In this document: positions 12,137 through 35,420 of the stretch, piece by piece | How the letters are laid out: the number at the start of each line of letters is the position of its first letter | Numbering within the stretch: the stretch's first letter is position 1 | Source: an uncultured Candidatus Saccharibacteria bacterium | Lineage (GTDB): Bacteria > Patescibacteriota > Minisyncoccia > Phycocordibacterales > JACOZG01 | Reading direction: 5' to 3' | Length of the DNA: 64,000 bases | NCBI GenBank assembly: GCA_964648765.1 | Contig: CAZYLF010000002.1 | Coordinates: forward strand, 3,537-67,536 | Notes under the pieces: model-generated | Databases searched by the model: none | Seen by the model: only the letters and a program-made list of their open reading frames with translations | What the model was told of the DNA's origin: nothing | Translations under genes and position numbers: made by a program

Positions 12137-12733
12137 TTATTTAATTGCGGTTTGGAGAGTTACGCTTGCGCTCAATGCTCCGTCAATATCAAACGCACTA
12201 TTGCAAACATCAAGAAAGCTCCAACCCACATGCCAAGATAAGTGCCAATGTCCAGGCCAATTCAGCGGAATTTCCCCCGTTAGTCCTGGCGTGATGCCGT
12301 AACCCCAAAGATTATCTTTGATTTGATACTTCACTAAACCCTTAAATGTGTCTTCAATTGCGTAACTGACGTGGAAGACTTCGCCCACAATATCCACGCC
12401 AACTCGCCGACCAACTTTAGGATTATCCTCAAATGGATACCACCGCGCACCAAAACCCAAACTCTGTGCGCTACCAAATGGCTTGTCTACATCCACCGCG
12501 CCAGATTGCGCCAAAAGTTGAGCAAACTGGAGTCTAGTGTACACATCCACACCAGGCAGAACCTTGTCGTTCTCAAAACGTAACTCACTAAGCGGGAGCA
12601 AAATGCGCACATTTTTTCCGGCCACATTGGCCTTTACCTGTCGCACGCCACCTCCCAAGGCTGCACGGTTGCACCCTCCCACCAGGAGGATCAGACTTGG
12701 CAACATTGCCATTAAAATCATCACCCAATTCAT
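12137..12733 (-). CDS. putative lipoprotein, 198 aa
   Basis: Signal peptide with lipobox LLVGGC; beta-rich mature part. Confidence 0.5.
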   Translation of the reverse strand: MNWVMILMAMLPSLILLVGGCNRAALGGGVRQVKANVAGKNVRILLPLSELRFENDKVLPGVDVYTRLQFAQLLAQSGAVDVDKPFGSAQSLGFGARWYPFEDNPKVGRRVGVDIVGEVFHVSYAIEDTFKGLVKYQIKDNLWGYGITPGLTGEIPLNWPGHWHLSWHVGWSFLDVCNSAFDIDGALSASVTLQTAIK

Positions 12734-12869
12734 CCGACCCTCCTTTCGTTATAATAAAGGTCTCACTAAGAATTAAGCATGTGCTTGTTTTGATATTTAG
12801 TCAAATAAAAAACCGCGCTGGCAAATGCACCAGCGCGGCGATAATCAAAACCACATAACTAACAACTAA

Positions 12870-13424
12870 CTAGCGTCTATGGCCGGAGAAGGCTCCGAAA
12901 ATGTCTTCTAGCGTAGGAAACATTGGTCGCTCTCGCTCAAGAACAATTTGCCAGTTCTCCCTGATGCCAAGCCGCCCACTCTCCTCGTCAATCTTGCTCC
13001 GGGCTTCGTCCGAAAGTTCAAAATGAACGCAAGTAGCAGCGAGCGAATCCACCGCGTCCAGCATCAACCCCACCTTCTCCAACGCAGCAGTAGAAGTACA
13101 AGCTGCGCACTCACAAGGAGTAGGATCTTCTGGCTTAGTTTGATCGGGTGAGGCTTTCACGCCAAGATTGTCAATGACGGTGTGCATTCTCTTCTTCATA
13201 TGCTCCAGCGCAGCATCATTTCGAGCCTTTTTGATGGCATCTCGATCATCAATGAGACGATTTCGGAGAAAAACAAGCTTCCGAGTATAGGGATCCTCAA
13301 TCACTCCGAGAACCTTTTCTCCACGCTTAAGCTTGTCATCAATGCTCTTAACCTCCTCATCGGGAATGCCCTCTAGTGCCTTTTTCAGATCATCCATAAA
13401 CTTCGACATGTCCATCTCCTTCAA
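12870..13424 (-). CDS. member A of a 3-copy paralogous family of ~175-aa proteins (unknown function)
   Basis: It shares the M..(F/L)M.(W/D)L N-terminus, the EV(I/L)G(V/K)(I/L)(E/T)DPY.RKL motif and a C-terminal LGIRENWQIV motif with the ORFs at 49678..50205 and 52626..53102. Confidence 0.6.
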   Translation of the reverse strand: MKEMDMSKFMDDLKKALEGIPDEEVKSIDDKLKRGEKVLGVIEDPYTRKLVFLRNRLIDDRDAIKKARNDAALEHMKKRMHTVIDNLGVKASPDQTKPEDPTPCECAACTSTAALEKVGLMLDAVDSLAATCVHFELSDEARSKIDEESGRLGIRENWQIVLERERPMFPTLEDIFGAFSGHRR

Positions 13425-13571: not shown

Positions 13572-14834
13572 ATGATTCCGAAAAAAGTACACGTAGTAGG
13601 CGGCGGGACAATTTCCCACGTCAGGTCACATTTGGGACTTTGCGCTCCAGCATACGGTTCGACGGCTCGTTTTATCGCCACTCTGGCTCAACTTGAGTCA
13701 GAGGCAATGCAGATTGAACTCCATCTCACCAGGATGGCTGACCCAACGAGTCATATTGAAACCAGCGAAGACTTAAAAGAATTGGTTTTGGAATTGGTTG
13801 ATGATCCGCGGACCAGAATCATTTTCTGGAATCCGGCCATCGTTGATTTTGATGGCACAATTGGTAAAGTTACGTCTGACAAATATGCCACACGTCTCCA
13901 CACTTCGGATGAAGGCGGCAAACCCCTTAGCTACGAGATGCACCTCACACCTGCCGATAAATTGGTGGGGATGATAAGGAATGGTAGTGAGGGGCGCAGA
14001 CCACGCAAGGATATCTTCCTCGTGAGTTTTAAAACCACAGCTGGAGCCACACCTGAAGAACAGTATCTGGCCGGGCTTCATCTGCTTAAAAGCTCGAGTT
14101 CAAACTTGGTGTTGGCTAATGACGTGGTGACCCGGCACAATATGATTATTGTGCCTGAAGAAGCGGTTTACCATGAGACCAAAAGTCGCACAGATGCCAT
14201 TATGGCCTTGGTGCAGATGACCTATTTGCGCTCTCACCTCACCTTCACCAGAAGCACCGTGGTGGCTGGCGAACCTGTGGCTTGGGATTCTGAATTGGTC
14301 CCGCCGGTACTCCGCAAAGTTGTGGACTTCTGCATTGACCGCGGCGCGTACAAAAAGTTCCGCGGTGTTACAGCCGGGCACTTTGCGGTGAAGATTGATG
14401 ACACCACCTTTCTCACCTCACGTCGCAAAACTGACTTTAATGATATGAAGACAGTGGGCCTCGTGATGGTAAAAACGGATGGGCCGGACTCAATCATCGC
14501 CTACGGCTCCAAGCCGTCGGTGGGTGGGCAATCACAAAGGATTGTTTTCACTGATCACCCTGGCACTGATTGCATTGTGCACTTCCATTGCCCAATTAAA
14601 CCGGGCTCAATGGTACCAACGGTGTCACAGCGCGAATATGAGTGTGGTAGCCACGAGTGCGGTAAAAACACTTCTCGAGGGCTTGCTCAGTTTGGTAATT
14701 TGAAAGCGGTGTATCTGGATCAACATGGTCCGAATATCGTTTTCTCCAAGGATATCAACCCACAAGAAGTGATCGACTTTATCGAGGCCAACTTTGACCT
14801 CGAGAAAAAGACGGGTGGCTACAGCGTCACCTGA
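13572..14834 (+). CDS. two-domain protein: N-terminal Rossmann-like (VHVVGGGTISHV) and C-terminal class II aldolase/adducin-like domain
   Basis: RBS gaaaggagg precedes the start. C-terminal …FLTSRRKTDFNDMKTVGLVMV…GSKPSVGG…IVHFHCP resembles the class II aldolase/adducin N-terminal fold. Confidence 0.65.
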   Translation: MIPKKVHVVGGGTISHVRSHLGLCAPAYGSTARFIATLAQLESEAMQIELHLTRMADPTSHIETSEDLKELVLELVDDPRTRIIFWNPAIVDFDGTIGKVTSDKYATRLHTSDEGGKPLSYEMHLTPADKLVGMIRNGSEGRRPRKDIFLVSFKTTAGATPEEQYLAGLHLLKSSSSNLVLANDVVTRHNMIIVPEEAVYHETKSRTDAIMALVQMTYLRSHLTFTRSTVVAGEPVAWDSELVPPVLRKVVDFCIDRGAYKKFRGVTAGHFAVKIDDTTFLTSRRKTDFNDMKTVGLVMVKTDGPDSIIAYGSKPSVGGQSQRIVFTDHPGTDCIVHFHCPIKPGSMVPTVSQREYECGSHECGKNTSRGLAQFGNLKAVYLDQHGPNIVFSKDINPQEVIDFIEANFDLEKKTGGYSVT

Positions 14835-14902
14835 TCAACAAAGTTCTTTCTTCAAAAAAGCAATCCCGCGTTTGGAGTAATCCAAACGCGGGATTTTATT
14901 TT
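14805..14902. repeat. direct repeat copy 1 (gene 3' end + terminator), partner at 20630-20728
   Basis: …gggtggctacagcgtcacctgatcaacaaagttctttcttcaaaaaagcaatcccgcgtttggagtaatccaaacgcgggattttatttt matches the block at 20643-20728. Confidence 0.8.
14862..14902. terminator. bidirectional rho-independent terminator
   Basis: Perfect 15-bp stem aatcccgcgtttgga / tccaaacgcgggatt with loop gtaa; T-run on the + strand and A-rich on the other side. Confidence 0.8.
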
Positions 14903-14983
14903 GCATATATAAAAAAACCGCACCACCAGCCGAAGCTGTTGGTGCGGTATGACTACTTGTTTCTAAACTACAAATGGTTTGGC

Positions 14984-15292
14984 CTAGTTGCCGCGAACCT
15001 TTGTAAAGATCAAAACCTGGTCTCCTTCGTTCAGGGCGATGTCAAAGCTTGAAACTCTTTGTCCATTGAGCCGAACGTCCGAGGATGCATCAACCTTGCT
15101 CTCATACCCACTTGCCTTGAAAGCATCAACGATAGTGCTGCCCTCGGCAAGCTTGTACGCCTTCACCTGACCACCCGGAAATGCTCCCAACTTCATCTCA
15201 AACTTCTTCGCCGGAGCTTCTTTCTTCGCAACTTTCTTTCCGGTAACGCTACCACCCGCACTCTTCCGATTAGATGTCTTTGCCGTTGTCAT
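14984..15292 (-). CDS. ubiquitin-like beta-grasp protein (ThiS/MoaD-like) with Lys-rich disordered N-terminal extension; C-terminus …KVRGN
   Basis: The C-terminal ~70 aa (KLAEGSTIVDAFKASGY…VRLNGQRV…LNEGDQVLIFTKVRGN) follow the MoaD/ThiS/Ubl pattern. It is the last gene of the E2-JAB-E1 operon. Confidence 0.55.
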   Translation of the reverse strand: MTTAKTSNRKSAGGSVTGKKVAKKEAPAKKFEMKLGAFPGGQVKAYKLAEGSTIVDAFKASGYESKVDASSDVRLNGQRVSSFDIALNEGDQVLIFTKVRGN

Positions 15293-15320
15293 AACTTAAT
15301 CCTTTCCTCTAGAGTGTTCC

Positions 15321-16022
15321 CTACTTATACATTTGACCTACGACCATCGTAGGCTGTAACGAAAAGACCAATTCATTTTCAAGCTCGTCAGTGAGAGGTT
15401 TCCCCTCCTTGAGCTTGCTCTGAATTTGCTGCCACCGAATCAACTGCCAAACCGCCAAACCTGAGACAATTTCGGCAGTAGATCCAACTGTAATCGACGC
15501 TCCACACGCTGACACGGGTGCAACATCGTCACCGTAAAGAGTACTTTCCCACCCTTTGACCTGGGTGGGGGCATTGGGGTTTATGGTATAAACCCGCCCA
15601 CTATTTGCCCCCATTCTGGTCTCAATCATAAGTTTGACCGAGGGTTTCAAACGGATGCCTCTTTCCCAGATTTCCTTTCGAGATGCCATCGTGTCAGTCA
15701 ACAGAAAGACAACATCTCCCAATCTTTGTGAGCCATCTACTCGTTCTGGGTGAACAGTAACCTGAGTACCTGTTTGCTCCAGAATAATCTCCGCCAAGGC
15801 CTCTGTTTTTAACCGGCCAACATGATTGTTGCCAAAAGCTTGGTTAGGAATATTGTGCGCCTCAATCTTATCGGGATCCCAAATATCAATCTTGGATATC
15901 CCGAGTTTTGCCAACCCGATCGCAATTCGCGACCCCGTGGCTCCCACTCCGATCACACTAACTCTTTGCTCTCCAAATTGCTCTGGAGCAAAGACCTCGA
16001 GATGGCGTATGGTATCAAGCAT
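15321..16022 (-). CDS. ThiF/MoeB/HesA-family E1-like adenylyltransferase (short, adenylation domain only)
   Basis: Rossmann motif VIGVGATGSRIAIGLAKLG, DIWDPDKIEAHNIPNQ (the D.D.V..SNL.RQ motif) and a conserved Cys in VSACGAS. Confidence 0.8.
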   Translation of the reverse strand: MLDTIRHLEVFAPEQFGEQRVSVIGVGATGSRIAIGLAKLGISKIDIWDPDKIEAHNIPNQAFGNNHVGRLKTEALAEIILEQTGTQVTVHPERVDGSQRLGDVVFLLTDTMASRKEIWERGIRLKPSVKLMIETRMGANSGRVYTINPNAPTQVKGWESTLYGDDVAPVSACGASITVGSTAEIVSGLAVWQLIRWQQIQSKLKEGKPLTDELENELVFSLQPTMVVGQMYK

Positions 16023-16038
16023 CTTTTTCCTTTCATCA

Positions 16039-16809
16039 TTAATCGTCCGTCTGCTGATTAGGACTCATCCACGAAAAAGGTGTCCAGTATTTTTGCGGCT
16101 GCGGGGCGACAGTGATAAATGAATAAGCCTTCACTTTCTCCCGCATCTCCGCACGTAATTCAAACCACAGAGCACGCAACTCATCCAATGAAGGCAAAGC
16201 TGGGCCCCTTAAACGCCAGGGCACGTCATGAATTGCATATCCTCGTCGCCAGTCAAACAAAGACAGATTAACCTCTCCACGCCGATTAAAAATTCCTCGT
16301 AAGAAGAACTCCGAACCTCGGTCACGAAAGACGTCCATCTGTTCATCATCCTGAGTAGAAGGATAAACCGATCCATTAACATGAGAATGGCCCCAAAACC
16401 TGATATTGTTGAAGGCTTCTTCTCCCTTGGGTTTTCTGAGCAACTCCGAAGCAAAATTAAACAAACTATCAGTGGTGATTTCAGTATGTCCACCACTAAC
16501 CCCCTGGTTGAAAAGATAAACATCATTGACGATAGTTTGTCTTTTCTCCCGAACGGCGGTGCCCAACCAACCTACTTCGTACCCAATACCGCTCACGAAC
16601 GCATGCATCTTAAACATTGCAAGCGGTGTGACTTCCACCAAAGCTGAAATCTTGCGAGGCACCCGTAGTCTCTCAACCACGGTGGAAAATTGCTCAGGCT
16701 CATTAAACGTCACTCCTGTTTCCTCAGGATGTGTCCACCTGATCTGACGCAATTCTCGTTTAGGTTTTAACTTCCCTCCCTTTCCGACCACTCCTCTGTA
16801 ATTCCTCAT
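16039..16809 (-). CDS. JAB/MPN (JAMM) metalloprotease domain protein
   Basis: JAMM motif HSHVNGSVYPSTQD (HxH-x7-S-x2-D) in WGHSHVNGSVYPSTQDDEQM. Confidence 0.7.
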   Translation of the reverse strand: MRNYRGVVGKGGKLKPKRELRQIRWTHPEETGVTFNEPEQFSTVVERLRVPRKISALVEVTPLAMFKMHAFVSGIGYEVGWLGTAVREKRQTIVNDVYLFNQGVSGGHTEITTDSLFNFASELLRKPKGEEAFNNIRFWGHSHVNGSVYPSTQDDEQMDVFRDRGSEFFLRGIFNRRGEVNLSLFDWRRGYAIHDVPWRLRGPALPSLDELRALWFELRAEMREKVKAYSFITVAPQPQKYWTPFSWMSPNQQTDD

Positions 16810-16843
16810 AGCAAACTCTCCCTAGTAAGAGACAAAACAATAT

Positions 16844-18556
16844 CTAAGCGGCTTTTTCAGCAACTCGCAATTTCCCCATTGACTCAAGTATTGATGGATT
16901 CACTTTCTTACCATCAAACTCCTTGAGAAAATTTAGAGTCACAATAACCGCTGACTCAATTTCCAGACTTCCCAACAATTCAGGAACCACCAAACTTAAC
17001 TGACCGATACCTACTGCATCCTTTTCCGTTGCTCCCAATTGGGGAACATGTACCGCGCCAAATCTGTCGTGGTAAATTGGAAACGGATTAATGACCCTTA
17101 CTGCATCATCTCGAGTATTAAACTGGAGATGAAGAGGGCCAACTGAATATACTTGGTCAGTGCTTATGTCGGTGACCTCAAGTTGTGAGAAAACTACATG
17201 TAGGGTAGAACCCAACAAATTAATCTCTCGCACCTCTTTGAGTTTCCATAGCTTCTCCAGCTCATTATGAACTTTACTTGCCACTTCTTGGGGTTTTAAA
17301 ACTCCCAGCGTATTAGCAAGCGCAGCATAGAAAACTGACCGACGATTGGCATCAATTTGGTTTAAAAGCTCAACTACTCTAGCTTTCAAACCATGCTCCC
17401 TCGTTTGACGATTTTGAGAATACAATACCTGAAACGCTCTGAGCGTTTCAGGTGATAGCGGCGCTCTTTCCTTCGGGTACTCCATCCTTGCTACAGCCCT
17501 AGGAAAAATTTGAAGGATTCTCTGATACGCATCATCCTCATTTACAGAATCAATAGCTTTCAGAGCAAAAAGAGTTGCTGCTTCAAACTCAAAATTCTGC
17601 AAAAGTTTAATGATCCAAGCGCCTTCACCCTGGCACCAATGTCCTTTAGATCGATCCACATGGGGATGACCGTACTCAGCTGCATAACGTTCATCACGGT
17701 GGAAAGGCCTACGAGTTAGATTAGAAAATGACGCATCAGCCTTGTCTCCAAAACTTAACGTCACCTTAAACTCACCTAACTCATAGAGTTGTTTACCGTC
17801 TCCACTTAACGCATACATTACATGGGTAAACAATATAAGTTTGTCCCCCTGAACCTCAACTTTTTTTATCTCAGGAATATTAGCCAAGAGTTTGATAGCC
17901 CTGTCTGACTCACTGGTGTTATTGGTTATGTCAGCAAATTGCCGATCCAATTCTCCCCGCTGAGCCATGTGTTGCTCTAACTCTGCGCGATGTGCGTGCA
18001 TGGACATCTTGATTCGCCCCAAAAGATCCCGATCGATTGGCGGAAATTCTCCCCGCTGGCATTGCTCCAAAGTGGGCAAACCAATGCGCAAAAATTTCAC
18101 CGCTTCCAAGAGTATCCCCCTATAGATGGCATTTCTGGATTTGCGATCAGAATAACGATCACTGTTTGCGCGAAACAGAAAATACAAGCTATTGCCGACC
18201 AGTTCGGCCATAACATCTCCTGTTTTCGGGTCCACAATCACCAATCCATCACCAGACGGTTCATACATTCTTTCGCCCGATTCACAAATTGCCATTGGGT
18301 GACCCCAAATTTTCTTTGGGGTTAACCTAACTGAGGCAACTTTTGACGGAGTCGCAAAAATGTTAATGACAAATCTGTTATCACGATTTTGTGGAGGAAT
18401 ATGCTTTTGCCTTTCTGTGTCATGCATACCATCATGAATTTCAATCTCATCCATGTATGCCAGCTTATCGCCCAAGACCTCCCTCGTGATACCCTCAAAA
18501 TCCTGTTGAGTCTCCAAACTTCTTGTCCAATCAGTAGTTTTAACCACCAAAGACAT
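16844..18556 (-). CDS. 570-aa protein with central E2/UBC-like domain (putative catalytic Cys in HPHV…GHWCQG)
   Basis: …YELGEFKVTLSFGDKADASFSNLTRRPFHRDERYAAEYGHPHVDRSKGHWCQGEGAWIIKLLQNF… matches the UBC HPN-x(5-7)-G-x-(I/W)C signature. The flanking N- and C-terminal domains are unrecognised. Confidence 0.55.
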   Translation of the reverse strand: MSLVVKTTDWTRSLETQQDFEGITREVLGDKLAYMDEIEIHDGMHDTERQKHIPPQNRDNRFVINIFATPSKVASVRLTPKKIWGHPMAICESGERMYEPSGDGLVIVDPKTGDVMAELVGNSLYFLFRANSDRYSDRKSRNAIYRGILLEAVKFLRIGLPTLEQCQRGEFPPIDRDLLGRIKMSMHAHRAELEQHMAQRGELDRQFADITNNTSESDRAIKLLANIPEIKKVEVQGDKLILFTHVMYALSGDGKQLYELGEFKVTLSFGDKADASFSNLTRRPFHRDERYAAEYGHPHVDRSKGHWCQGEGAWIIKLLQNFEFEAATLFALKAIDSVNEDDAYQRILQIFPRAVARMEYPKERAPLSPETLRAFQVLYSQNRQTREHGLKARVVELLNQIDANRRSVFYAALANTLGVLKPQEVASKVHNELEKLWKLKEVREINLLGSTLHVVFSQLEVTDISTDQVYSVGPLHLQFNTRDDAVRVINPFPIYHDRFGAVHVPQLGATEKDAVGIGQLSLVVPELLGSLEIESAVIVTLNFLKEFDGKKVNPSILESMGKLRVAEKAA

Positions 18557-18607
18557 GTTTTACCTCCTTTACATAGTTTAGTTTTCAAGGTCCCGTTACC
18601 TGTATAT

Positions 18608-18635
18608 TTACTAGCATATAGAAATAATTTGTCAA
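18608..18635 (-). promoter_or_regulatory. promoter (minus strand) TTGACA-N16-tgcTAGTAA for the E2-JAB-E1-Ubl operon
   Basis: Reverse complement of 18608-18635 reads TTGACAaattatttctatatgcTAGTAA. Confidence 0.5.
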
Positions 18636-18640
18636 TAGCT

Positions 18641-18676
18641 AAAATAAAAAGCCCCCACTTTTAGGACAGTGGGGGC
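18641..18676 (-). terminator. rho-independent terminator (minus strand) after the FAD monooxygenase gene
   Basis: gcccccactgtcctaaaagtgggggc hairpin plus T-run on the minus strand. Confidence 0.7.
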
Positions 18677-18698
18677 AAAATGACTTTGTGGGTCATTT

Positions 18699-20231
18699 TT
18701 ACCTAATTCGACGCGTTTTTTTGTACTCTGCAGCTCTCATGATCACTCCAAAAACCAAATCACCCAAAGAGTGGAGCATGCCGGGAATAACAATGGCGTT
18801 GGGATTTTCAGGAGTCTCAACTACACACCCAAATCCAAAGTAACCACGACTCAACCGTTCAGGTTTACGAGGATCAAATTCGTTTGACGCAAATTCGCCA
18901 TCGTAATCAAACAAGGCACATGCCTTTTTTGTGTCGTACGAACAACCCATCATCTCCATGGTTTCTTTGGAATGTTGGTAACCAATCAAGGTCATGATTC
19001 GATCGTACGGGAGCTGATCGAGAAATTTACCCTTTGGACCGAAAATTTGGATCACACCGCCATCAACTTCCCAGTGCTTCACATTGGAGATAATTTTACC
19101 TCCATATAATGCTCGGAAATAGTCATGACGGTATTCTGGCAAATCACCTTGATAATCAACCAAGTTCGGCCGAGATAAATCTCTGAATACCCGATAAACC
19201 CTTTCTCCACTCTCGACATAAGAATTTGGATTGAAAGTCGCCGCCTCGGGGTAATGAGTAAGGATTCGATAATCAACCTCATATCCATTGTCGATAAGTT
19301 TGTGAATCTGGTGGATCATTTCAGCGGTCGAGTTACCAAGACCGATAAGAATGAATCGCTTCCCCTTTGCCTCAGCTGGCCGGAGGAAATACTGCCACCG
19401 TGCACCCGCTTCACTCACCTTTGCAGTAGTAGTCATCCGTAAAGGATCGGAGATCGGTTTGGGTTTACCCATTCCAATCGCATTTATCACAATCGGATAT
19501 GTTGCCGTTTTACCACCCGCAAAACTCAGTAAATGCTTTAGCTTACCCGGCTTAATTCCAGTAACATTCTCAGTCACTGTTTTAAGGGTAGCCAAGTTAT
19601 CCAGAAAAATCCGCACCTCATCCCCATCTCCAGGTGCAGGCTCAAGGACATCCCCGAAAAACTGTAACCGTCGGGGATTATTGCGTGACAATCCATGGAC
19701 ATTATCTTGTGCCCAGATTCCTAATGGCCTACTCTTCTCATAAACCGTGATCTTTTCAAAGCCAACTCTTTGAAGTGCGGCTGAAACAAGGATCCCGGCT
19801 GCCCCATAACCAATTACGGCGACAGGAACACTTCTGAGTGATTGGGGTATACGGACATCGGTAAAGTAAACGCCTGACGCCCCCTCACCAATAAAATTGT
19901 TACCCTCAGCAATCCCGCTACTCGCAAGGGCTTTGCCAATACGACCATTTTCTTCATGTGATCCGTTATACGGAGAAGTCTCGGCGGGTTGTATGTGGGG
20001 GAGAGCCAAAGCATAGTTGTCGATTAACCCGGTATCAGCGTTTGGTTGACGCAATACCAGATTCAACAGTGCGTTGCCAAAAAATCCCTGCTCAGCCAAT
20101 TTGTTAATAGCTGACAAATCAAAACCCTTGTCTTCAATAAACCTCCGAAGTAAACCCAAATCAAGCTGATCTGGCCTTCTAGCACCGAACATCTTTAATA
20201 GTTCAGCTGCTGTAGCTTTGGGGGTAGACAT
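18699..20231 (-). CDS. FAD-dependent monooxygenase (flavin-containing/N-hydroxylating monooxygenase-like) with ~130-aa N-terminal extension
   Basis: Two Rossmann dinucleotide motifs, VAVIGYGAAGILVSAAL and FILIGLGNSTAEM. Confidence 0.7.
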   Translation of the reverse strand: MSTPKATAAELLKMFGARRPDQLDLGLLRRFIEDKGFDLSAINKLAEQGFFGNALLNLVLRQPNADTGLIDNYALALPHIQPAETSPYNGSHEENGRIGKALASSGIAEGNNFIGEGASGVYFTDVRIPQSLRSVPVAVIGYGAAGILVSAALQRVGFEKITVYEKSRPLGIWAQDNVHGLSRNNPRRLQFFGDVLEPAPGDGDEVRIFLDNLATLKTVTENVTGIKPGKLKHLLSFAGGKTATYPIVINAIGMGKPKPISDPLRMTTTAKVSEAGARWQYFLRPAEAKGKRFILIGLGNSTAEMIHQIHKLIDNGYEVDYRILTHYPEAATFNPNSYVESGERVYRVFRDLSRPNLVDYQGDLPEYRHDYFRALYGGKIISNVKHWEVDGGVIQIFGPKGKFLDQLPYDRIMTLIGYQHSKETMEMMGCSYDTKKACALFDYDGEFASNEFDPRKPERLSRGYFGFGCVVETPENPNAIVIPGMLHSLGDLVFGVIMRAAEYKKTRRIR

Positions 20232-20281
20232 GGCATTTCCTCCTTTTTGACTTTATGACCTTGTTACGCTTAAGTGATGTT

Positions 20282-20530
20282 TCAGTTCAGAACTTTAACA
20301 TCAACAGCCCGAAGAAGACGGTTACCATTGGACACATCAAGTGAACCAATTAAAAAATCAACATTCAAACCCCTAGCAAGAGTTACGTCATCATGCGAAG
20401 ACGCAACAACAAACTTTAGCCTATCATACGAGCTGGCTTGATCTTTTACTCGCACAGTCCAATATCCTTTCTCTTTTTGGCCAGTATATCCAACCACAAA
20501 ACCTGTGTGTCGGCGGTTCTCCTCCACCAT
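20282..20530 (-). CDS. hypothetical small protein, 82 aa
   Basis: RBS aaagagg; beta-rich sequence; co-directional and upstream of the monooxygenase. Confidence 0.45.
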   Translation of the reverse strand: MVEENRRHTGFVVGYTGQKEKGYWTVRVKDQASSYDRLKFVVASSHDDVTLARGLNVDFLIGSLDVSNGNRLLRAVDVKVLN

Positions 20531-20629
20531 TATTCACCTCCTTTCTTGTTTAAGAACAACCTCTTTTATTCATGCATAATTTACCAATTTTGTCAATATG
20601 TAACTTAGAACAAAATCTCACTTGAGATG

Positions 20630-20728
20630 AGATAGCTGGTGGCTACAGCATCGCTTAAACTGTAAACAAAGTTCTTTAAGAAAAAACAATCCCGCGTTTG
20701 GAGTAATCCAAACGCGGGATTTTATTTT
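20630..20728. repeat. direct repeat copy 2 (includes a remnant of the 13572-14834 gene 3' end + identical terminator)
   Basis: …ctggtggctacagcatcgcttaaactgtaaacaaagttctttaagaaaaaacaatcccgcgtttggagtaatccaaacgcgggattttatttt. Confidence 0.8.
20688..20728. terminator. bidirectional terminator (identical copy of 14862-14902)
   Basis: Identical 34-nt palindrome plus T-run. Confidence 0.75.
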
Positions 20729-20736: not shown

Positions 20737-20931
20737 CTATTTCCAGTTCACCCACTTTTGGTACAACACCCCGGCAAGAAAGATTACTCCAGTGAGCGCT
20801 ACCCACATCTTTGTCCTCTCACCCTCCTGACCATAATTCACAGCGAAGACGATAAAGAAAATAAAGAGGAGCAACACCGCAATCAAATGTAACAATCTGT
20901 TTGCCTTACCTGGCTCTTTGATATCAATCAC
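20737..20931 (-). CDS. small membrane protein, 64 aa
   Basis: Two TM helices; ORF only. Confidence 0.35.
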   Translation of the reverse strand: MIDIKEPGKANRLLHLIAVLLLFIFFIVFAVNYGQEGERTKMWVALTGVIFLAGVLYQKWVNWK

Positions 20932-21111
20932 ATGCTATCTCCTAAAAATGTTACTCAAAGTTAACTATTTATAAATTAACACATTATGGCAAAAAAGCAA
21001 ATATTAATAAAACCATAGCAATTTTGAATTTTTTTTGTTACTATCACGCTTGATATTCTGAAAGATGAATATCATATTCCGGCGTGGCGCAGTGGTAGCG
21101 CAGTCGCCTGT

Positions 21112-21693
21112 GGACAGGTTCTTGGCTTACAGATGGTATACTCAACTGAGTTATGCCACGAAAAGAAACAAGAACCTATGCTGATCGAGCAGCCTATATG
21201 GTAAGGGCCGTTTCTTTAAGAAGAATTAAGTTAAGGAAAATGGCTCGAGAATACAAAGGTGGTAAATGTGAAATTTGCGGTTACTCTAGATGTGAGCGAG
21301 CGCTAAGTTTCCATCATCGAGATCCTAAAAAGAAATCCTTCGGGATATCAGACAGAGGTCTAACGTATTCTTGGCAGAGGATAAAAAACGAAATTGATAA
21401 GTGTGTCCTCCTCTGCGCTAATTGTCATATGGAATTGCACGACGGTTTTACGCAGCTTCCCGCTGTAAAGCGGGTTGAAAAATGAGGTGAATTCGGTGAA
21501 GTCCCATGTGGATAATACCGAGCCGAGCCCGCCAACATCCGAAAGGTTGTGGCGGGAAGGTGTAGAGACTATCTCGCAAGAGAGTACTTCTCGCTAAATA
21601 AAATTAACGAGACGGAAGCGCCTCACATCCCACTCACTGAAAAGTGAAGGATGATGATCTAGTCCATCCCTTTAAGCAATTAGAGGATAAATG
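21112..21693 (+). other. group I self-splicing intron (putative) carrying an HNH homing endonuclease ORF
   Basis: It lies between the tRNA halves. The 3'-terminal G, the R/S-like elements (ggtgtagagactatc … gatgatctagtcc) and an internal HNH ORF support the call. The exact P1 and boundaries are unverified. Confidence 0.55.
21153..21485 (+). CDS. HNH homing endonuclease (intron-encoded)
   Basis: CEICG…HHRDPKKK…CANCH zinc-finger/HNH motif; 110 aa. Confidence 0.7.
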   Translation: MPRKETRTYADRAAYMVRAVSLRRIKLRKMAREYKGGKCEICGYSRCERALSFHHRDPKKKSFGISDRGLTYSWQRIKNEIDKCVLLCANCHMELHDGFTQLPAVKRVEK

Positions 21694-21719
21694 TAAGCGA
21701 TTGGTCGTAGGTTCGAATC

Positions 21720-23390
21720 CTACCGCCGGAGCCTGACTGACAAAAGTGGCACATGATGCCACTTTTGTTGTATTTGGCCTGGCTTTTTAGAGGTTCGAGC
21801 GTGCTCTATTTCCTGCATAATAGCTTCTCGTGCTTTTATGAGGCTCAAAAAGAAAGAACTGTAGGAAAGCTGGATCTTTTTGTCGGAAATGGTGAGGTTC
21901 GAGCCAAGGCATGCGAGTATCGCTCTTTTGGTCTTTTCATCTCCATTTGCGTACCAAAGATGGGCGTAGCACGCAAAGTCAAAGGTTTGCTCTGATAGTT
22001 CTGCCCATTGTTCAACTGCCTTATTCTTAATCTTCAACTCGTCTTCAAGAAGGCCCTTCTTTCTGAGTAGGTCTGATTTTAAGGACTGATATTCCTGTTC
22101 GCCAATGATGGTTCGAGCCTTGTTGGATGGTGCGGTGAAGTTTAAGGTTAAAGACTGCAGCTGCTGCGTTACTTCTTCACACTCCTTGTGTTTGGTCCTT
22201 ATTGCAATTGAATCACTCTCGGCCTCAGTCTTGCGGACCTCATGAACATGGCGGACCGCCCAGTCACGATACTCTTCTGAAATTCTTATATCTTTAAGGA
22301 TCGCTCCAATCTGTAGATGTAGCAGTTTTACTTCTACATGCTTTTCAGTACAACCGGCATCATATCTCTTTTTGGTGCAGTTATAGTAGACATAATGATG
22401 GACGTTGCCGTTCTTGCATCGCTTTACTTTTGCTTGAGCTGTAATACTACAACCACAGGTGGCGCATTTCATAAGACCAGTAAAAGCAAACATTCGCTCC
22501 TCATGTCGTGGGCGTGGTTGATTGCTTCGGCCCATAATTTTTTGGACCCTATCAAATTCCTCTTTGGTAACCATTGGCTCATGCGCTCCTTTATTCCAAT
22601 TACCACTGTGTAGCGGAAACTCAAACCAACCGTAATAAAATGGATTCCCTAGGACTGCATAAATTGCTGATCGAGAAAGATGTTCGCCGCCAATGTTTCT
22701 ACGTGGGACCGTCCGGAGATTCAATTGCTTTCTTGAAATATTCCAAATCTGGGCCATTGAATAGTTGCCGGTAAGAGCAAGGTCAAAAAGTCTTCGGACC
22801 AAGGGAAACCTTTCAGGATCTCTTTCCAAAGTCTTATAACCCTTTTGCTTGTTTGGAGTATTGAGGTATCCGATTGGTGCGCCACTTGGCATCCAGCCAT
22901 CTCTCACTTTCTTTTGCAGACCTCGCTTCACATTCACTGATAGGTCTCGAATAAACTGGTTGGCCATTCCAAGTTCCACCTGCATCATGAGGACGTTGTC
23001 TGTCGGATAATAGGTTCGGCCGAAGGTGACGATCTGGGATATCGCACTCTGCTGCAACATCCAGCTTATCTGGCCACCATCGACAGGATTACGGGCTAGG
23101 CGGTCCAGTTTCCAGCACAGGATGCCATTGGCTTCGCCTTTATAGATTCTTTCAAGCATTGAGTTGAATACTTTCCTGCCTGGCTTCTTGGCTGATTGTG
23201 ATTCTTCAAGGATATCCAGGATTTGTAGACCTTGATCCTTTGCAATCTTCATAAGCTCGTCTTTCTGAGCATCTATGGACGCCGCTTGACGGTCTTCTGC
23301 CTCGCTGGATTTACGTGCGTAGAGGAAATATTTAATTGGTTGATTTGTCTGGTTCATTGTTTGTTTGTGTGTCAGATATGTGGGTCTCAT
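21720..23390 (-). CDS. large serine recombinase (resolvase/invertase N-domain + recombinase domain + zinc ribbon)
   Basis: N-terminal YARKSSEAEDRQ…SIDAQ catalytic Ser region, central recombinase domain and C-terminal CATCGC…C cluster. The stop overlaps the tRNA 3' exon by ~12 nt. Confidence 0.85.
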   Translation of the reverse strand: MRPTYLTHKQTMNQTNQPIKYFLYARKSSEAEDRQAASIDAQKDELMKIAKDQGLQILDILEESQSAKKPGRKVFNSMLERIYKGEANGILCWKLDRLARNPVDGGQISWMLQQSAISQIVTFGRTYYPTDNVLMMQVELGMANQFIRDLSVNVKRGLQKKVRDGWMPSGAPIGYLNTPNKQKGYKTLERDPERFPLVRRLFDLALTGNYSMAQIWNISRKQLNLRTVPRRNIGGEHLSRSAIYAVLGNPFYYGWFEFPLHSGNWNKGAHEPMVTKEEFDRVQKIMGRSNQPRPRHEERMFAFTGLMKCATCGCSITAQAKVKRCKNGNVHHYVYYNCTKKRYDAGCTEKHVEVKLLHLQIGAILKDIRISEEYRDWAVRHVHEVRKTEAESDSIAIRTKHKECEEVTQQLQSLTLNFTAPSNKARTIIGEQEYQSLKSDLLRKKGLLEDELKIKNKAVEQWAELSEQTFDFACYAHLWYANGDEKTKRAILACLGSNLTISDKKIQLSYSSFFLSLIKAREAIMQEIEHARTSKKPGQIQQKWHHVPLLSVRLRR

Positions 23391-24231
23391 TTACTGGCTC
23401 TGCCCATTTTTCGCCGTTTTTAAAGGGTGGTTCCGTAGTATCTGATTGGATACTACTGACTTCCCGTAAATTTCCCGTTATATCGGGAAAATTATCTCCG
23501 TTTTCTGTGGGTCTCACTACCTCACTTAAGGGTATGTTTCCTTCATAGGCTGTCTGGACGACATCATGCCCAGAAGGGTCTTGAATAGCAACTTCTAGTG
23601 GTAGCTGCCACTTATGCATTTTTCTTTTAAGAACATCTCCAATGCTAGTTAAAGAATTCGGGGATTTATTATTTTGGTTAGTTAGAGTATCTACGTTAAT
23701 ACTACGGTTCCTGCGTTTTCGGATACTACGGAGATGTATATCTGGATACTGCGCAACTGAATCTTTAAGTTTGAGACGCCCTTTAACATGGGCAATGCTT
23801 TTCCAAAAATCGACCGACTTAAAGTAGTACAGGTTCAGAGTTTTGAATCCACTCTTTGTCTGAACCACACCAAGGATGCTGCACTCAACAAGAAGCCGGA
23901 CCGCATTGGCAACATAGTTTCTATTCTTCTCCCCAGTTAAGTCTTGAATCGTGGTTAAGCTTGGCCAGGCGACTTGTGTCTGTGTATTTCCATGTTTCAA
24001 GATTGCGCAGTAAACAAGCGTGCAGAGCTTTGGCAACTTTTCCATATAGCCATGCTCTACAAATTCATTCTCCACGAAAAATCGAGTAGGCTTTCTCTTA
24101 CCGCGCAATAAGGACCGGTCAATCTGATTCTTCAGTTCCTCGATCTTCGCCTTGTGGTAGGCATGAGCTATCTCCACTTTCTTTTTCTTCGGGTCCAACC
24201 ACTCGAGGAAATACTTCTCGTTGTTGTTCAT
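23332..24231 (-). CDS. putative replication initiator / winged-helix DNA-binding protein
   Basis: wHTH-like segment LCTLVYCAILKHGNTQTQVAWPSLTTIQDLTGEKNRNYVANAVRLL; located next to the iteron-like array. The start may be the internal Met (24045). Confidence 0.45.
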   Translation of the reverse strand: MNNNEKYFLEWLDPKKKKVEIAHAYHKAKIEELKNQIDRSLLRGKRKPTRFFVENEFVEHGYMEKLPKLCTLVYCAILKHGNTQTQVAWPSLTTIQDLTGEKNRNYVANAVRLLVECSILGVVQTKSGFKTLNLYYFKSVDFWKSIAHVKGRLKLKDSVAQYPDIHLRSIRKRRNRSINVDTLTNQNNKSPNSLTSIGDVLKRKMHKWQLPLEVAIQDPSGHDVVQTAYEGNIPLSEVVRPTENGDNFPDITGNLREVSSIQSDTTEPPFKNGEKWAEPVNETHISDTQTNNEPDKSTN

Positions 24232-24388
24232 ATTCTGTAAGCCACACCTTTTTCACAGGCCGATAGACAAGATCAAAGACCGTCAGGAGTTTGGTAGCTT
24301 CTTCAACAAGAATTTCATCTGATGGAACCTCGCCATGTTCCTGGCGATAGATCTCTCGATATTCATCTAGTGCTTGTTTACTTAGCAT
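24119..24388 (-). CDS. small protein homologous to the 33511..33735 ORF (function unknown); C-terminal part overlaps next gene
   Basis: N-terminal 45 aa (DEYREIYRQEHGEVPSDEILVEEATKLLTVFDLVYRPVKK) align with ESFQVLYKTHFNKDISRAEAVEKGTKLLTLMKAVYKPMTKE. Confidence 0.45.
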   Translation of the reverse strand: MLSKQALDEYREIYRQEHGEVPSDEILVEEATKLLTVFDLVYRPVKKVWLTEYEQQREVFPRVVGPEEKESGDSSCLPQGEDRGTEESD

Positions 24389-24499
24389 GATGGTGTAGTG
24401 TTTGGTTAATAATTTCGACCTTTAGTCTCTTCCAGAAATAGAAAGAGCTGAGTCCCAGTTGCAAGTGACTCAGCTCTTTCCATGCAACTGGATGTTATG

Positions 24500-24860
24500 T
24501 ATCGTAGATCCTATTTCGTGCAAAATTGCGTGCATTACTTTGGGACCATCCGATTTGTCTATTCTGAGGCCCTATATTTTCCTAATTGCAGGAATTACTT
24601 CGGACCAAAGAACTATCTAATCCTAGTGCTTAAAAAAAGCAAAACATGGTGTATTACTTTTTATGGCTAGGATTATGGATTTATCCTAAGGTGTATAAAG
24701 TTCCTAACTGTAGGAATTACTCTTACCCCCCGAGGACTGTCTTAATCCTATTGTCTAAAAAGTGAAAAATGCGTTGCATTACTTTCATCTCCTCGGACAG
24801 TCATATCCTAAGAGCAAATGTAGTGCATTTCGGTGTGCATTACTTTTCCTTTAGGACCAG
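24500..24860. repeat. iteron-like array: 6 degenerate tandem repeats of ~61 bp each containing ATCCTA and TGC(G)TGCATTACTTT motifs
   Basis: kGCATTACTTy occurs at 24531, 24591, 24651, 24714, 24776 and 24836. ATCCTA occurs at ~24507, 24619, 24682, 24744 and 24805. The array lies in the intergenic region upstream of the rep-like/recombinase genes. Confidence 0.7.
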
Positions 24861-24975
24861 GTAAGTATGAGGTCCGAAGAAGTGCAAATTAGTGGGTATT
24901 GGCCGAGACAACGTAAAAAGCCCTGAATAGGCTTGGAAAAGCGTACACAGGGCTGTTTAGGGTCAAATTCGGTGT

Positions 24976-27900
24976 CTACAATATGTTCTCTCGCAATAAA
25001 TAAGCTATTACCGAAGCCTTTTCCAAGAGGAAATCCAAAATGATGAGAATCTGATTTTTTAACTGCGGATTAGTCTTGATCTTTTGCCGATTTTTAAGAA
25101 TGTAACTCCTCACAAGATTCTCCAGATAATAAACAGTGTTTACTTCTAGTTCCTTACGAGAAAGATCTGGATTCTTCTGTAGCAAATCACTAATCCAAGC
25201 AATACCCTCAGGAACAAAATTACTACCTATATCATTCAGAAGTTTTGTCAAAGCATACAAGACAGGGGTATTACCTCCCATATCTTCAGATACTTTCTTA
25301 AAGAAAGTCTTTTCTCTGTCTTTCAGAGAGCGCCATTCTTTCGCCCCTTTCTTCCATTGCAATGCTAGGAGGTATTTATGAACAACACTTTCAGCGTATC
25401 TAAGGTGATTTTCATCTGAGCATAGTTCCACAATCTTCGGATAGAAAACCTTCCAAACAGTCCAAAATTCTTCGTATTGATTTATAGAATCTTCCGCAAT
25501 AACAAACGCTTCTAGTACATCAGCCACAGCTTTCCTTCGCCTGAAATCACCAATGAGTTCCGTAAATGGCTTCACATACGTTTCAATTTCTTCTTTTGGA
25601 GAATAGAGGACAAAGTAAGCAAACTTATCTAAAAATCTATGTTCAAGCATATAGTCCAGACGCTCTTCCTTGTCCTCATTCTTAAATGCTTCTATGAGCA
25701 CAGGGCAAATTTCTCGTAAAAACTTCTTATGATTCTCGTCACTAGTTTTTAGCGGTACCAGCAGAAAAGCAGTTACGAGTATGCCGGGATCTATCTCTGC
25801 AACATTCTGTAGATCTGTATAAGAGAGTTGATTTGATAAGGCTTTATTGATCTGGGCTTTGCACTCTTTTTTAAAACGCTTTATGACAGAGATTGTAGAG
25901 AAGTCATATTTTTGTTTCTTTCGACTCTCTTCTCGAATAGACTCGCTTATTTCATCAAACTTAGGTTTAAGAAATAAGTACCCATGGAATATAGCTTTTG
26001 CATCCTCGGGACTTTCTGACCACAGATGTTGCAGAACTGCCGCGACCGCATAATCAGAGACTCGTTGGCTCATACCAATCGGATAGGAGTCGAAAAGAAC
26101 GAGAAGAAGTATCACTTTGATTTTTTCAGCATCCTTGGGAAACTTTTTGATCAATAGAGGAAGGACGTTAACTGATGCTTCTAATCCGTCGCCAACCTGA
26201 TATCGAAAACCTGCCTTCAAAGGCATAGATGCATAATCGAGTACTACTTTTTTACAAAACTCTGTATCCTTAGGAGACAGTTTGTCTGAGTAGTCTCGCA
26301 AAAGTACGGCACAGACATATGATGGAACTGACCGGTAGAATAATCTGAATTGACTCTCTTCGAGTTTATCTTTATCTAGCTGTTCCAGGATTGCTTTCGT
26401 TTCAGAAAGCGCGAGCACAGGATCATTTTCATATTGTGGGTAATTTTTTACTTCTTCCTTTCTTTCAAACTTATGACTCGACCATAATTGCAAAGGTGTA
26501 TATTTCAATGCTTCGGAACTTTTTGCCTGCGCTTCTTCACTGTGTTGTCTTAACTCTGGATCAATCTCAGGGTTGAAACTAATAAGAACTTGATCGTCTT
26601 TTTTCTCTGTAGTTATCTTCATTTTTCGACGATCCATTCTTGCCAAACAAAGTCTCCAGGTTTTATCACCATCAGTCTCTTTTGATTTGTTAGGTAGTTT
26701 TGCATAGTATTCATCAAGTATTTTCCATACCTCTTCCTGTCTAGTTTTAGACACTTCTTCCGCTTCGCCCTCATTCGCAAATAACTGATAGTTAAGTGCC
26801 TGATTTTCAAGTGAGTGATTACGATGCTTATCTTCACAAGTCTGCAGCCTCTCGTTCTTGAATAAGCCCATTGGATCATGGGCCATCGAGTAAGTGAACT
26901 TCGCACTACTCATATCGAGGTACATTCTTGAAGAATCAAAGAAAAAGAAATCCTTAGTTCTGAAAAGAATTTTTGCAATATTGAATAGCTTCGACGGTTC
27001 GGCAAGAACAGCGCTGACTACTACTGCAGTAATCGAGACGGATCGAGAATTTTTGATGAGATAAAGGCACCACTTCTCTACAACTTCAGGATCCCAGGTT
27101 TTTGCTATACCGAGCAACCAATGCTCCAGAGCCATATGAATAGATTCAAGTAATGGTGGAGCAACCTGCGTTCCCCGATATAAATTCCAAATTCTGTGAC
27201 AGGCATATTGTTTGATAGTTTGACCCGAAGCATCTACTACGACATCTATTTCTTCAGCTTCGTACTGCGCGAATTCTGATTTGGCAAAATACCCGATCGA
27301 CTTATTAGTAAATGCTAAAATAAAGTTGACCGTTTCCTGAGGGGCGACTTGCAACATCGTTCCTATTGGTGTCTGAAAAGCACTAGCTGGGTAATACTCA
27401 AGATGGCCCTCCGTGAGATCAAAGTATTGCTCTATGCCATTCCTGTAATCAGAATATGAATGCCTATCTTCACGAGGTTTATAAAACCAAAATAGATTTG
27501 CAAGTTTTATGATTTCTTTCGGAAGATGACGTGCAACTTCGGTGCTATTGATAATTGAAGAAAGCATCACTTTTACCAATTCGTAATATCGAGTTCGATG
27601 GGATGTATCCTGCGCGGCAATGACTCCATCTACAATTTCAGTCAACTCTTCTTTTATTTCCCCTGAGCCACTAAGAATAGTTCTGATGAGTTGCTCTTTG
27701 GAGCTATCACGAGAACTGAAGTAAAAATCATTCTTGGCTGTAAGGGTGTTGTAATAAAACAATGCAATCTGACTTGCTTCCTTAGTAGTTTCTCCTTGCT
27801 TATTACTTCGGTTCCAATCATCCAGTACTGGGAGGATGACATGCATATACATAAGTTGAAGCCTGTCCTTATGTTTGTTGACGAAAGCAATGGCAGAAGA

Positions 27901-29814: not shown

Positions 29815-29819
29815 CGTAT

Positions 29820-30983: not shown

Positions 30984-30985
30984 AA

Positions 30986-32107: not shown

Positions 32108-32111
32108 AAAT

Positions 32112-33510: not shown

Positions 33511-33735
33511 ATGCAGCTCGCAGACAAAGACATCGAGAGTTTTCAGGTGCTGTATAAAACGCATTTCAATAAAGATATTTCGCGTGCAGAGGCAGTAGAA
33601 AAAGGCACCAAGCTCTTAACATTGATGAAAGCTGTTTATAAACCCATGACCAAGGAACAGTTCGATGCTATCCAGAAACGGAGAAAAGATACATTACCAG
33701 CTTTGATTAAAAGACTGGAACAAGATCAACTCTGA
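33511..33735 (+). CDS. small protein homologous to the 24119..24388 ORF
   Basis: See the alignment above; 74 aa. Confidence 0.5.
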   Translation: MQLADKDIESFQVLYKTHFNKDISRAEAVEKGTKLLTLMKAVYKPMTKEQFDAIQKRRKDTLPALIKRLEQDQL

Positions 33736-34115: not shown

Positions 34116-34128
34116 AATTGGAATTATA

Positions 34129-35160: not shown

Positions 35161-35174
35161 TGGTAATTTCAGTC

Positions 35175-35390
35175 TTATCTCTGCTCTCTTTCAAGTTGTC
35201 GACGATAGAGAGCGCATACACCGGCTGAGATCGAGATGAGCGTGAGAACGATGGCATCATTGATGCAGTGCTGATACGTAAAGCCCCAGATAGTTCCGCC
35301 TTCGCCTGCAAGCCATGCGCCGATAAGCGCTAGTGCTCCCCAGATTGCCGTTGCGATTGATACTCCATGGATAAATGATGATTTTTTCAT
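35175..35390 (-). CDS. small membrane protein, 71 aa
   Basis: Two TM helices. Confidence 0.4.
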   Translation of the reverse strand: MKKSSFIHGVSIATAIWGALALIGAWLAGEGGTIWGFTYQHCINDAIVLTLISISAGVCALYRRQLEREQR

Positions 35391-35420
35391 AAGATTTATG
35401 TTAATTATTTTTAAATAAGT

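Follow-up and report, generated by a model that had tools for sequence, protein, structure and literature searches.

The window analysed here is a stretch of 64,000 nt from contig CAZYLF010000002.1 (assembly GCA_964648765.1) of an uncultured Candidatus Saccharibacteria bacterium (Patescibacteriota). Downstream of a plus-strand gene for a 420-residue protein (the 420-aa gene) lies a block of six minus-strand genes, encoding an 82-residue protein (p82), a flavoprotein, a 570-residue protein (the 570-aa protein), a candidate JAB metallopeptidase, an E1-like adenylyltransferase and a candidate ubiquitin-like protein (Ubl). This block (14903-20637) is flanked by direct repeats of the 3′ end and terminator of the 420-aa gene and is, on balance, probably an inserted cassette that now lacks a recombinase of its own and is bounded by attL/attR-like repeats. 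The repeats were analysed by reading of the site, a repeat finder, pairwise alignment and shuffled-sequence controls. Proteins were scanned with the Pfam and PADLOC libraries, and structural models, including an AlphaFold2 (AF2) model of the flavoprotein, were searched with Foldseek. Comparison loci from other genomes are labelled L0xx; L026, L031 and L032 are among the relatives of the 420-aa gene, and L020-L024 and L027-L030 carry the cassette genes.

The direct repeats around a 5.8-kb segment that had been predicted originally are real and far above chance expectation. The repeat finder and pairwise alignment place them at 14814-14902 (89 nt) and 20638-20728 (91 nt), 5,826 bp apart from start to start; the starts first proposed, 14805 and 20630, were about 9 nt too generous on the left. 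The copies had been described as nearly verbatim, which holds for the terminator half, where the right-hand 42 nt (CAATCCCGCGTTTGGAGTAATCCAAACGCGGGATTTTATTTT) are identical in both repeats, but not for the left 47-49 nt, where the likeness falls to about 72-75% (of 53 alignment columns, 38 are identical and 15 differ or hold a gap). Every difference is in this left part, the 42 columns of the core having none (Fisher p = 8e-5 when gaps are counted as differences). With up to three mismatches allowed, the 42-nt core occurs twice in the 64-kb window and in none of 100 shuffled sequences. Collinear similarity was not found in either flank: on the left, 12 of 300 shuffles scored as well and the best alignment was non-collinear, and on the right 106 of 300 scored as well.

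The left part of each repeat contains GGTGGCTACAGC, continued as GTCACCTGA in the proximal copy or ATCGCTTAA in the distal copy, and then a partly conserved spacer with small indels. The proximal repeat thereby holds the last six codons and the stop of the 420-aa open reading frame (ORF) (GGYSVT*). The distal repeat reads AGGYSIA*, with an in-frame stop three codons 5′ of the first glycine, so that the coding remnant claimed for it is indeed present. Between the two coding tails there are four substitutions, all of them transitions and conservative in effect (V>I, T>A, TGA>TAA). The C-terminus of the family is usually GGYxI[A/S/V]* (L008, L010 and L012-L015). As the four changes keep the stop and move towards this ending, the two tails seem to have diverged under coding constraint, and the distal pseudo-end is more readily taken for the remnant of an orthologue that once functioned than for a product of random decay, which would favour a cassette that carried the end of an orthologous gene.

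The identical core consists of a 15-bp stem and a 4-nt loop with an A-tract on its 5′ side and a T-tract on its 3′ side. It is predicted to be an intrinsic terminator on both strands and at both sites (ΔG -27 to -30 kcal/mol, z about -7), the proximal hairpin serving the 420-aa gene and the distal hairpin a convergent gene for a 64-residue protein (the 64-aa gene). The hairpin is that of the 420-aa gene: in L026, L031 and L032 the gene is trailed by hairpins in the orthologous position, with compensatory changes in the inner stem (AATCCC...GGGATT or AACCCC...GGGGTT). The distal hairpin and much of the distal spacer are of the window lineage's own type and unlike those of any sampled relative, and for this reason the donor was probably either a very close relative or the window lineage itself.

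The 420-aa protein has 3,403 homologues at E ≤ 1e-50, some of which also match PF04127. The site was compared in 15 GTDB loci and on the contigs of four close homologues, in which synteny was mostly absent; only L026 (74% identity) retains the neighbourhood of a tRNA-Asn gene. In L026 the 420-aa gene is followed by the orthologous terminator, by two small minus-strand genes and then by a tRNA-Asn(GUU) gene split by an intron with an HNH gene; there is a single terminator, and the module is absent between the 420-aa gene and the tRNA. The distance from the stop codon to the tRNA gene is 1,065 bp in L026 and 6,244 bp in the window, or 418 bp once one repeat unit is removed. The search for empty sites in relatives thus yielded, in L026, a site with one terminator and without the module, but no allele from the same species.

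In L031 (75% identity), homologues of a mini-element begin within 95 nt of the T-tract of the orthologous terminator. In the window this mini-element lies beyond the distal repeat and encodes a large serine recombinase (LSR). The shared parts are an origin-like (ori-like) region (78% nucleotide identity), an 89-residue protein (p89), a helix-turn-helix (HTH) protein and the N-terminus of the LSR, all in the orientation opposite to that in the window. As L031 carries another element right after the same terminator, the point just downstream of the 420-aa terminator is used repeatedly, serving as a junction for different elements in different genomes. The LSR element of L031 (11385-12899) is preceded by iteron-like CTAATTTGC repeats, and its orientation raises the possibility of an inversion about the terminator. 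Both L026 and L031 come from the metagenome-assembled genome (MAG) GCA_040384425.1, where the two 420-aa genes (74% and 75% identical to that of the window) stand in different contexts; this bin is probably a mix of two related genomes.

The genes for the flavoprotein, the 570-aa protein, the JAB candidate, the E1 and the Ubl also occur together in L020, L021, L022/L023/L029 and L027/L028. Variants are found in L024, which has a p82 homologue and an AAA ATPase gene in place of the flavoprotein gene, and in L030, where the 570-aa gene is duplicated. These loci come from five or six Paceibacterota-type genomes or metagenomes, each with the module amid different housekeeping genes. None of them adjoins a homologue of the 420-aa gene, and none of the four scanned for flanking direct repeats (L020, L021, L022 and L024) has them. 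The module was not found on viral contigs, and a scan of JGI metagenomes returned two loci only. The block is a self-contained, autonomous module with a patchy distribution. In the window the repeats exactly bracket this complete unit with its own promoter region and terminators, which supports its reading as a cassette. A gene for a DUF6008 protein (about 190 residues) stands between the flavoprotein and 570-aa genes in L020 and L021 and between the 570-aa and JAB genes in L027/L028. With p82 upstream of the flavoprotein gene in the window, DUF6008 in these loci, and a p82 homologue and the AAA ATPase in L024, the module has accessory parts that can be exchanged.

The arrangement could have arisen as follows. 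At the ancestral site the 420-aa gene (plus strand) and the 64-aa gene (minus strand) would have converged on a single bidirectional hairpin. The incoming DNA, probably circular and from a very closely related lineage, would have carried the module together with a look-alike of the site of about 90 bp, comprising the pseudo-end GGYSIA*, a spacer and an identical hairpin. One crossover inside the 42-48-bp identical hairpin would then have integrated it in the manner of Campbell. The proximal repeat would consist of the host left arm and the core, followed by the cassette, and the distal repeat of the cassette-borne pseudo-end, the core and the host right arm. Both flanking genes would keep an intact end and a terminator, and the cassette would be insulated from read-through. 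Divergence to the left of the core only fits such a crossover in an identical core between two diverged sites. The circular intermediate, the position of the crossover and the enzyme are the inferred parts of this scheme. As to the enzyme, we divide our expectation about equally between RecA-type recombination on the 42-48 bp of identity and site-specific recombination in trans. Identity of this length should suffice for RecA recombination at low frequency. Under the second option the block would be a decayed integrative element, in the sense of a cis-mobilizable element (CIME) or a pseudo-SCC (staphylococcal cassette chromosome), possibly serviced by an LSR like the one 1 kb away.

Several observations weigh against insertion of a cassette. 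Public data hold no empty site from the same species, the nearest of the 420-aa homologues being 77% identical. Neither a recombinase, a relaxase or a transposase nor a relic of a recombinase was detected with Pfam and PADLOC in the six cassette ORFs, and no tyrosine recombinase was found among the scanned ORFs of the window. The left junction of the LSR element is at the 3′ end of the tRNA-Asn gene and its right end is near 24953-24975; neither is hairpin-like. The tetranucleotide composition and GC content of the cassette are host-like (z = 0.09), and therefore either the donor was a very close relative or the event is old and residence has been long; recent transfer from a distant donor is excluded. 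The insertion model does not account for how a copy of the gene end first came to be carried by the cassette. Finally, the Logan k=31 unitigs from the same samples, held in SRR14271335, SRR14271332 and other runs, are in all their pieces 100% identical to the window but are interrupted within the core, where four arms meet; integration and an empty site beside a circle would yield this pattern equally well, and it lends neither arrangement independent support. The idea of a horizontally acquired module, advanced in the original prediction, is supported in part, by the recurrence of the module in unrelated contexts without repeats; its composition is not foreign. Insertion at the 3′ end of the 420-aa gene remains the best-supported reading, from the repeat anatomy, the L026 site and the patchy distribution of the module, on evidence that is circumstantial.

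A stronger version of the insertion model, which we regard as improbable, would make the 420-aa terminator hairpin a true recombination site, with its perfect dyad and palindromic TA centre, at which cassettes without recombinases are loaded, unloaded or inverted, perhaps by the local LSR family in trans, one of them carrying an undescribed Ubl system. If this were so, candidate-phyla bacteria would possess a cassette-exchange system targeted at a terminator.

The alternative that fares best, although we consider it distinctly less likely than insertion, is duplication in situ of the gene end and terminator (about 90 bp), after which the coding remnant drifted while selection kept both hairpins. 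Such a duplication could have come about as a long target-site duplication, by repair of a staggered break, or through tandem duplication of the 420-aa gene with replacement of the second copy by the cassette. It would agree with a hairpin and spacer that are largely the window lineage's own rather than those of any sampled relative, and with the native-like composition of the cassette; and since both hairpins are needed as terminators, of the 420-aa and 64-aa genes, selection could explain their conservation. The pattern of divergence argues the other way: about 25% of the left half differs but none of the 42 positions of the right half, and conservation that extends to the loop and to the A- and T-tracts is more uniform than a terminator would require; four conservative transitions that keep the stop and approach the family consensus are unexpected under neutral decay. 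The cassette ends have neither a transposase gene nor terminal inverted repeats, and no further trace of a second 420-aa copy is seen to the left of 20638. We know of no transposition process that produces target duplications of about 90 bp.

A special case of the insertion model, to which we give a small probability, has the adjacent LSR acting in trans in the style of SCC or pseudo-SCC elements, with the hairpin as att site and the cassette as passenger. No recombinase other than the LSR was found in the window, where it is 1 kb away from the distal repeat; in L031 the homologous element starts no more than 95 nt from the orthologous terminator, and the hairpin is a perfect dyad, as the sites of recombinase dimers tend to be. 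There is precedent in the Dehalococcoides ssrA islands, and in SCCmec as cited in PMC3146451; the documented repeats in those cases are 15-20 bp, much shorter than the repeat described here (PMC3146451). The junctions of the LSR element itself are unlike the hairpin, and 1 kb of host DNA with the 64-aa and tRNA-Asn genes separates it from the cassette, so the two do not form a contiguous tandem array. No third, shorter copy of the repeat bounds the LSR island (16-mers with at most two mismatches matched at about the chance level, by a rough estimate), and no iteron-like motifs of the LSR element were found near the cassette.

It is very unlikely that the arrangement is an assembly artefact in which a cassette from another strain or an episome was threaded through the shared 42-nt hairpin. 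Short-k assemblies do break at the core, and in them the cassette is a separate unitig of 5,844 bp whose ends overlap by 18 nt. Against this, the deposited contig of 222,593 bp presumably rests on reads that span the core, since typical reads, like the large k values of MAG assemblies, exceed a repeat of 42-48 nt in length. The identity of all unitig pieces with the window and the host-like composition also speak against an artefact, and the cassette-borne arm carries the pseudo-end of the host gene, a historical link to the site.

Least credible of all is a coincidental reuse of a dispersed terminator or REP-like element unrelated to movement of the cassette. Strong palindromic terminators like the core can indeed recur within a genome, but there are only two copies in 64 kb and the 28-nt hairpin has none in the JGI metagenome contigs or IMG/VR. 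Beyond the hairpin the likeness continues for 47-49 nt, through the spacer and into the end of the adjacent coding sequence, and other genera have orthologues of the hairpin as terminators of this gene. A common dispersed terminator, which the original prediction had named as the finding that would speak against it, is thus contradicted by these counts, made over the window's 64 kb, the JGI metagenome contigs and IMG/VR.

The cassette has several features of CIMEs, which are decayed integrative and conjugative or integrative and mobilizable elements (ICEs or IMEs) that retain attL and attR and have lost the integrase and transfer genes (PMC5704250). Shared features are direct repeats on both sides, with the target gene's 3′ end contained in one of them, the absence of recombinase and transfer genes inside, and a location in a region where other integrative elements accumulate. 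The cassette differs from CIMEs in that no relic of an integrase or of conjugation genes is seen, no cognate ICE or IME with the same att has been identified, and the repeat, of about 90 nt, is imperfect and centred on a terminator hairpin.

A second parallel is with serine-recombinase islands that lie between repeats of the targeted gene's 3′ end and occur in tandem with islands that lack integration genes (PMC3146451). As in the ssrA islands of Dehalococcoides and in SCCmec, a conserved gene 3′ end is the target, repeats of that end bound the islands, and some islands have no integration genes. As in the ssrA islands there is also an LSR gene nearby whose 3′ end overlaps the end of an RNA gene, comparable to the attL embedded in dsiB. 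Those islands are contiguous and their repeats are 15-20 bp long, whereas here the LSR element is 1 kb away and has unrelated junctions. In kind, the locus belongs with the known class of recombinase-less islets bounded by att-like repeats, here in a phylum that is under-explored. The genomes of Patescibacteria are tiny and few mobile elements have been described from them; to our knowledge none of the CIME kind is among these.

Several other classes of element were rejected. A genomic island with a tyrosine integrase was set aside because no domain of the Phage_integrase type is present in the cassette or in the scanned ORFs of the window, and an LSR element of the SCC or ssrA-island type (as distinct from LSR action in trans) because the LSR lies outside the segment bounded by the repeats, 1 kb away, with junctions that lack the repeat and without a third copy. 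A transposon or insertion sequence (IS) with target-site duplication does not fit the lack of a transposase and of end inverted repeats save the hairpin, nor a repeat that is imperfect and about 90 nt long. An integron cassette was discounted because no tyrosine recombinase was found and the hairpin, with its perfect GC-rich stem and its T-tract, is a terminator; a REP-like terminator family was discounted on the copy numbers given above. Not among the rejected classes are Xer-dependent elements (IMEX), which have dif-like 28-bp sites at their flanks, with two arms of about 11 bp and a 6-8-bp spacer; read from the sequence, the core differs in geometry, having 15-bp arms and a 4-nt loop.

The coordinates of the repeats, terminators and genes are listed in Table 1.

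Table 1 Features of the repeat-bounded segment and its surroundings. Positions are those of the window.
Feature	Position	Strand	Basis
Putative target gene; 420-aa protein, DFP/CoaB-like N-terminal region, class II aldolase C-terminal domain, end ...KKTGGYSVT*	13572..14834	+	Pfam Aldolase_II
Proximal direct repeat (attL-like): true gene end, spacer, hairpin and T-tract	14814..14902	+	Alignment
Bidirectional intrinsic terminator hairpin, proximal (15-bp stem, GTAA loop)	14862..14895	.	Fold and terminator prediction
Ubl operon's own terminator; first cassette-specific sequence	14917..14950	-	Fold, ΔG -25 kcal/mol, z -5.4
Ubl candidate, 102 aa	14984..15292	-	ORF, orthologue alignment
E1-like adenylyltransferase, 233 aa, single ThiF domain, conserved SACG cysteine	15321..16022	-	Pfam ThiF, 3.6e-19
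JAB/MPN+ metallopeptidase candidate, 256 aa, motif FWGHSHxxGxxxPSxQD	16039..16809	-	Motif alone
570-aa protein, three repeated alpha/beta units; middle unit with invariant GHPHVDR-x5-WC-x-G-x-G	16844..18556	-	Alignment, model
Internal terminator between flavoprotein and 570-aa genes	18651..18676	-	Terminator prediction
510-aa FAD/NAD(P)-binding flavoprotein with two dinucleotide-binding domains and a unique 130-aa helical N-terminal region	18699..20231	-	AF2 and Foldseek
82-aa protein (p82), first cassette gene; homologue in the L024 module	20282..20530	-	ORF
Distal direct repeat (attR-like): pseudo-3′ end GGYSIA* (20638-20658), spacer, identical hairpin (20688-20721)	20638..20728	+	Alignment
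64-aa membrane protein gene, host side of distal repeat; stop codon 9 nt from T-tract	20737..20931	-	ORF
tRNA-Asn(GUU) split by a 582-nt group I intron (21112-21693) with a 110-aa HNH ORF (21153-21485)	21078..21731	+	Rfam RF00028, 54 bits; Pfam HNH
Large serine recombinase (LSR), 556 aa	21720..23390	-	Pfam Resolvase, Recombinase, Zn_ribbon_recom

The repeat scar is an ordinary signature, and it is the cargo and the hotspot behaviour of the site that hold most interest. PADLOC matched the E1 alone among the cargo proteins, through its E1-E2 models, and sequence searches of the PDB with the E1 returned ThiF, MccB, PaaA and the SUMO E1. Corresponding PDB searches with the 570-aa protein, the JAB candidate and the flavoprotein gave nothing useful. 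The JAMM-like motif of the JAB candidate (HxHx7Sx2D) is invariant in six orthologues, and the protein has no Pfam match. The Ubl candidate, which matches nothing in Pfam or the PDB, ends in ...(K/Q)(V/I)RGN instead of GG, and this ending is invariant in six aligned orthologues; orthologues stand in L020-L024 and L027. The terminal Asn may either be trimmed off by the JAB protein or be itself the reactive residue. MccB acts on a C-terminal Asn.

The invariant motif of the 570-aa protein, which can also be written GHPHVDR...WC.GEG, resembles the HP[NH]...C motif of E2 proteins, and together with a weak RWD match this suggests an E2/UBC-like or RWD-like protein. With a model of the protein Foldseek returned nothing at E ≤ 0.001, the best match being the RWD domain of Knl1 (E = 0.04), and an hhalign comparison of the family with human UBE2D2 was not significant (probability 0.1%). 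The family profile matches 1,599 cluster representatives at E ≤ 0.001, many of them as two or three repeated stretches, and none of eight scanned members (from the set P0248-P0391) has a Pfam domain. The protein belongs to a large uncharacterised family built of a repeated unit with an HPH...C motif.

The flavoprotein had been called an FAD monooxygenase, which is one option within the fold with two dinucleotide-binding domains. The best PDB matches of its AF2 model (pLDDT 92) are thioredoxin reductase (TrxR)-like ferredoxin-NADP reductase (FNR), the bacillithiol-disulfide reductase Bdr/YpdA, small flavin-containing monooxygenases (FMOs) and SidA-type hydroxylases, and Foldseek places them about equally. 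The flavoprotein has no invariant Cys.

The closest described counterpart of the cargo is the BilABCD system (PMC10557695). Like that system, it comprises an E1 together with a candidate Ubl, a candidate JAB-type peptidase and a protein in which the E2-like HP[NH]...C motif is found. The cassette Ubl, moreover, has one residue after the Gly, which fits pre-processing by JAB as shown for BilC and BilA. The differences are considerable. The cassette E1 is a 233-aa protein with a single ThiF domain in place of the tandem inactive and active adenylation domains and mobile Cys domain (IAD+AAD+CYS) of the Bil system. The putative E2 is a three-repeat protein of 570 residues without a detectable UBC match in sequence or fold, and RGN is the invariant end of the Ubl. 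A TrxR/FMO-like flavoprotein gene constantly accompanies the operon, joined by DUF6008 in L020, L021 and L027/28. On these comparisons the cargo appears to be a Bil-like but architecturally distinct and undescribed variant of a Ubl system, coupled to a TrxR/FMO-like flavoprotein. It may have a role in defence; should defence or a stress response prove to be its function, the known diversity of ubiquitin-like pathways in bacteria would grow. The operon is so far restricted to Paceibacterota and, apart from the E1, has no match in the scanned Pfam and PADLOC libraries.

The locus gives a concrete instance, open to testing, in which a modular cassette would have been gained between the conserved, metabolic 420-aa gene and a tRNA-Asn gene, at a hotspot that also gathers the serine-recombinase element and a defence island with Avs4, restriction-modification and Fic genes. 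The two repeats supply exact primers or k-mers with which excision circles and empty sites could be spotted in the original reads.

The original prediction had included neither the LSR gene 1 kb past the distal repeat nor the split tRNA-Asn gene between them. The spliced exons are called as tRNA-Asn(gtt) by ARAGORN, and the unspliced gene is missed by ARAGORN and by the Rfam gathering scan. The intron sits in the anticodon loop, apparently between positions 35 and 36. L026 has the same intron and HNH gene in the same tRNA (12325-12952), the HNH proteins sharing 68% amino acid identity. A full-text literature search found no published description of a group I intron in a bacterial tRNA-Asn gene.

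The LSR ORF overlaps the last 12 nt of the tRNA-Asn gene and is part of a mini-element on the minus strand (21720-24975) that comprises the LSR gene, a gene for an HTH_36 protein (299 aa), the gene for p89 and the ori-like non-coding region. The defence island (24976-33014, minus strand) starts exactly where the homology of the LSR element to L031 ends. It encodes Avs4 (1,612 aa; PADLOC, 1,964 bits), a type II restriction enzyme with its methyltransferase, and a Fic/PDC-S04 protein. With a GC content of 0.37-0.40 and a tetranucleotide z of 2.2-2.8, the Avs4/restriction-modification island is clearly more foreign in composition than the Ubl cassette. It is followed by a copper/heavy-metal cluster (33726-39119, minus strand) of genes for a cupredoxin-like protein, a DsbD_2-HMA protein, a DUF305 protein and a P-type ATPase with an HMA domain. 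Further on, a SAM (S-box) riboswitch (40802-40906, plus strand; Rfam RF00162, 66.6 bits) precedes a cobalamin-adenosyltransferase-like gene.

A second pair of direct repeats is present at 45245-45296 and 45946-45997 (52 nt, 75% alike, 701 bp apart). Each copy consists of a different terminator hairpin followed by a common promoter-like sequence, TTTCTTTTTCTAAAATCCC.TAAAA.TGCTA.AATCA. Between the copies stand two small genes (91 and 76 aa), and a third (101 aa) comes after the pair, which looks like either a duplicated promoter region or another small cassette.

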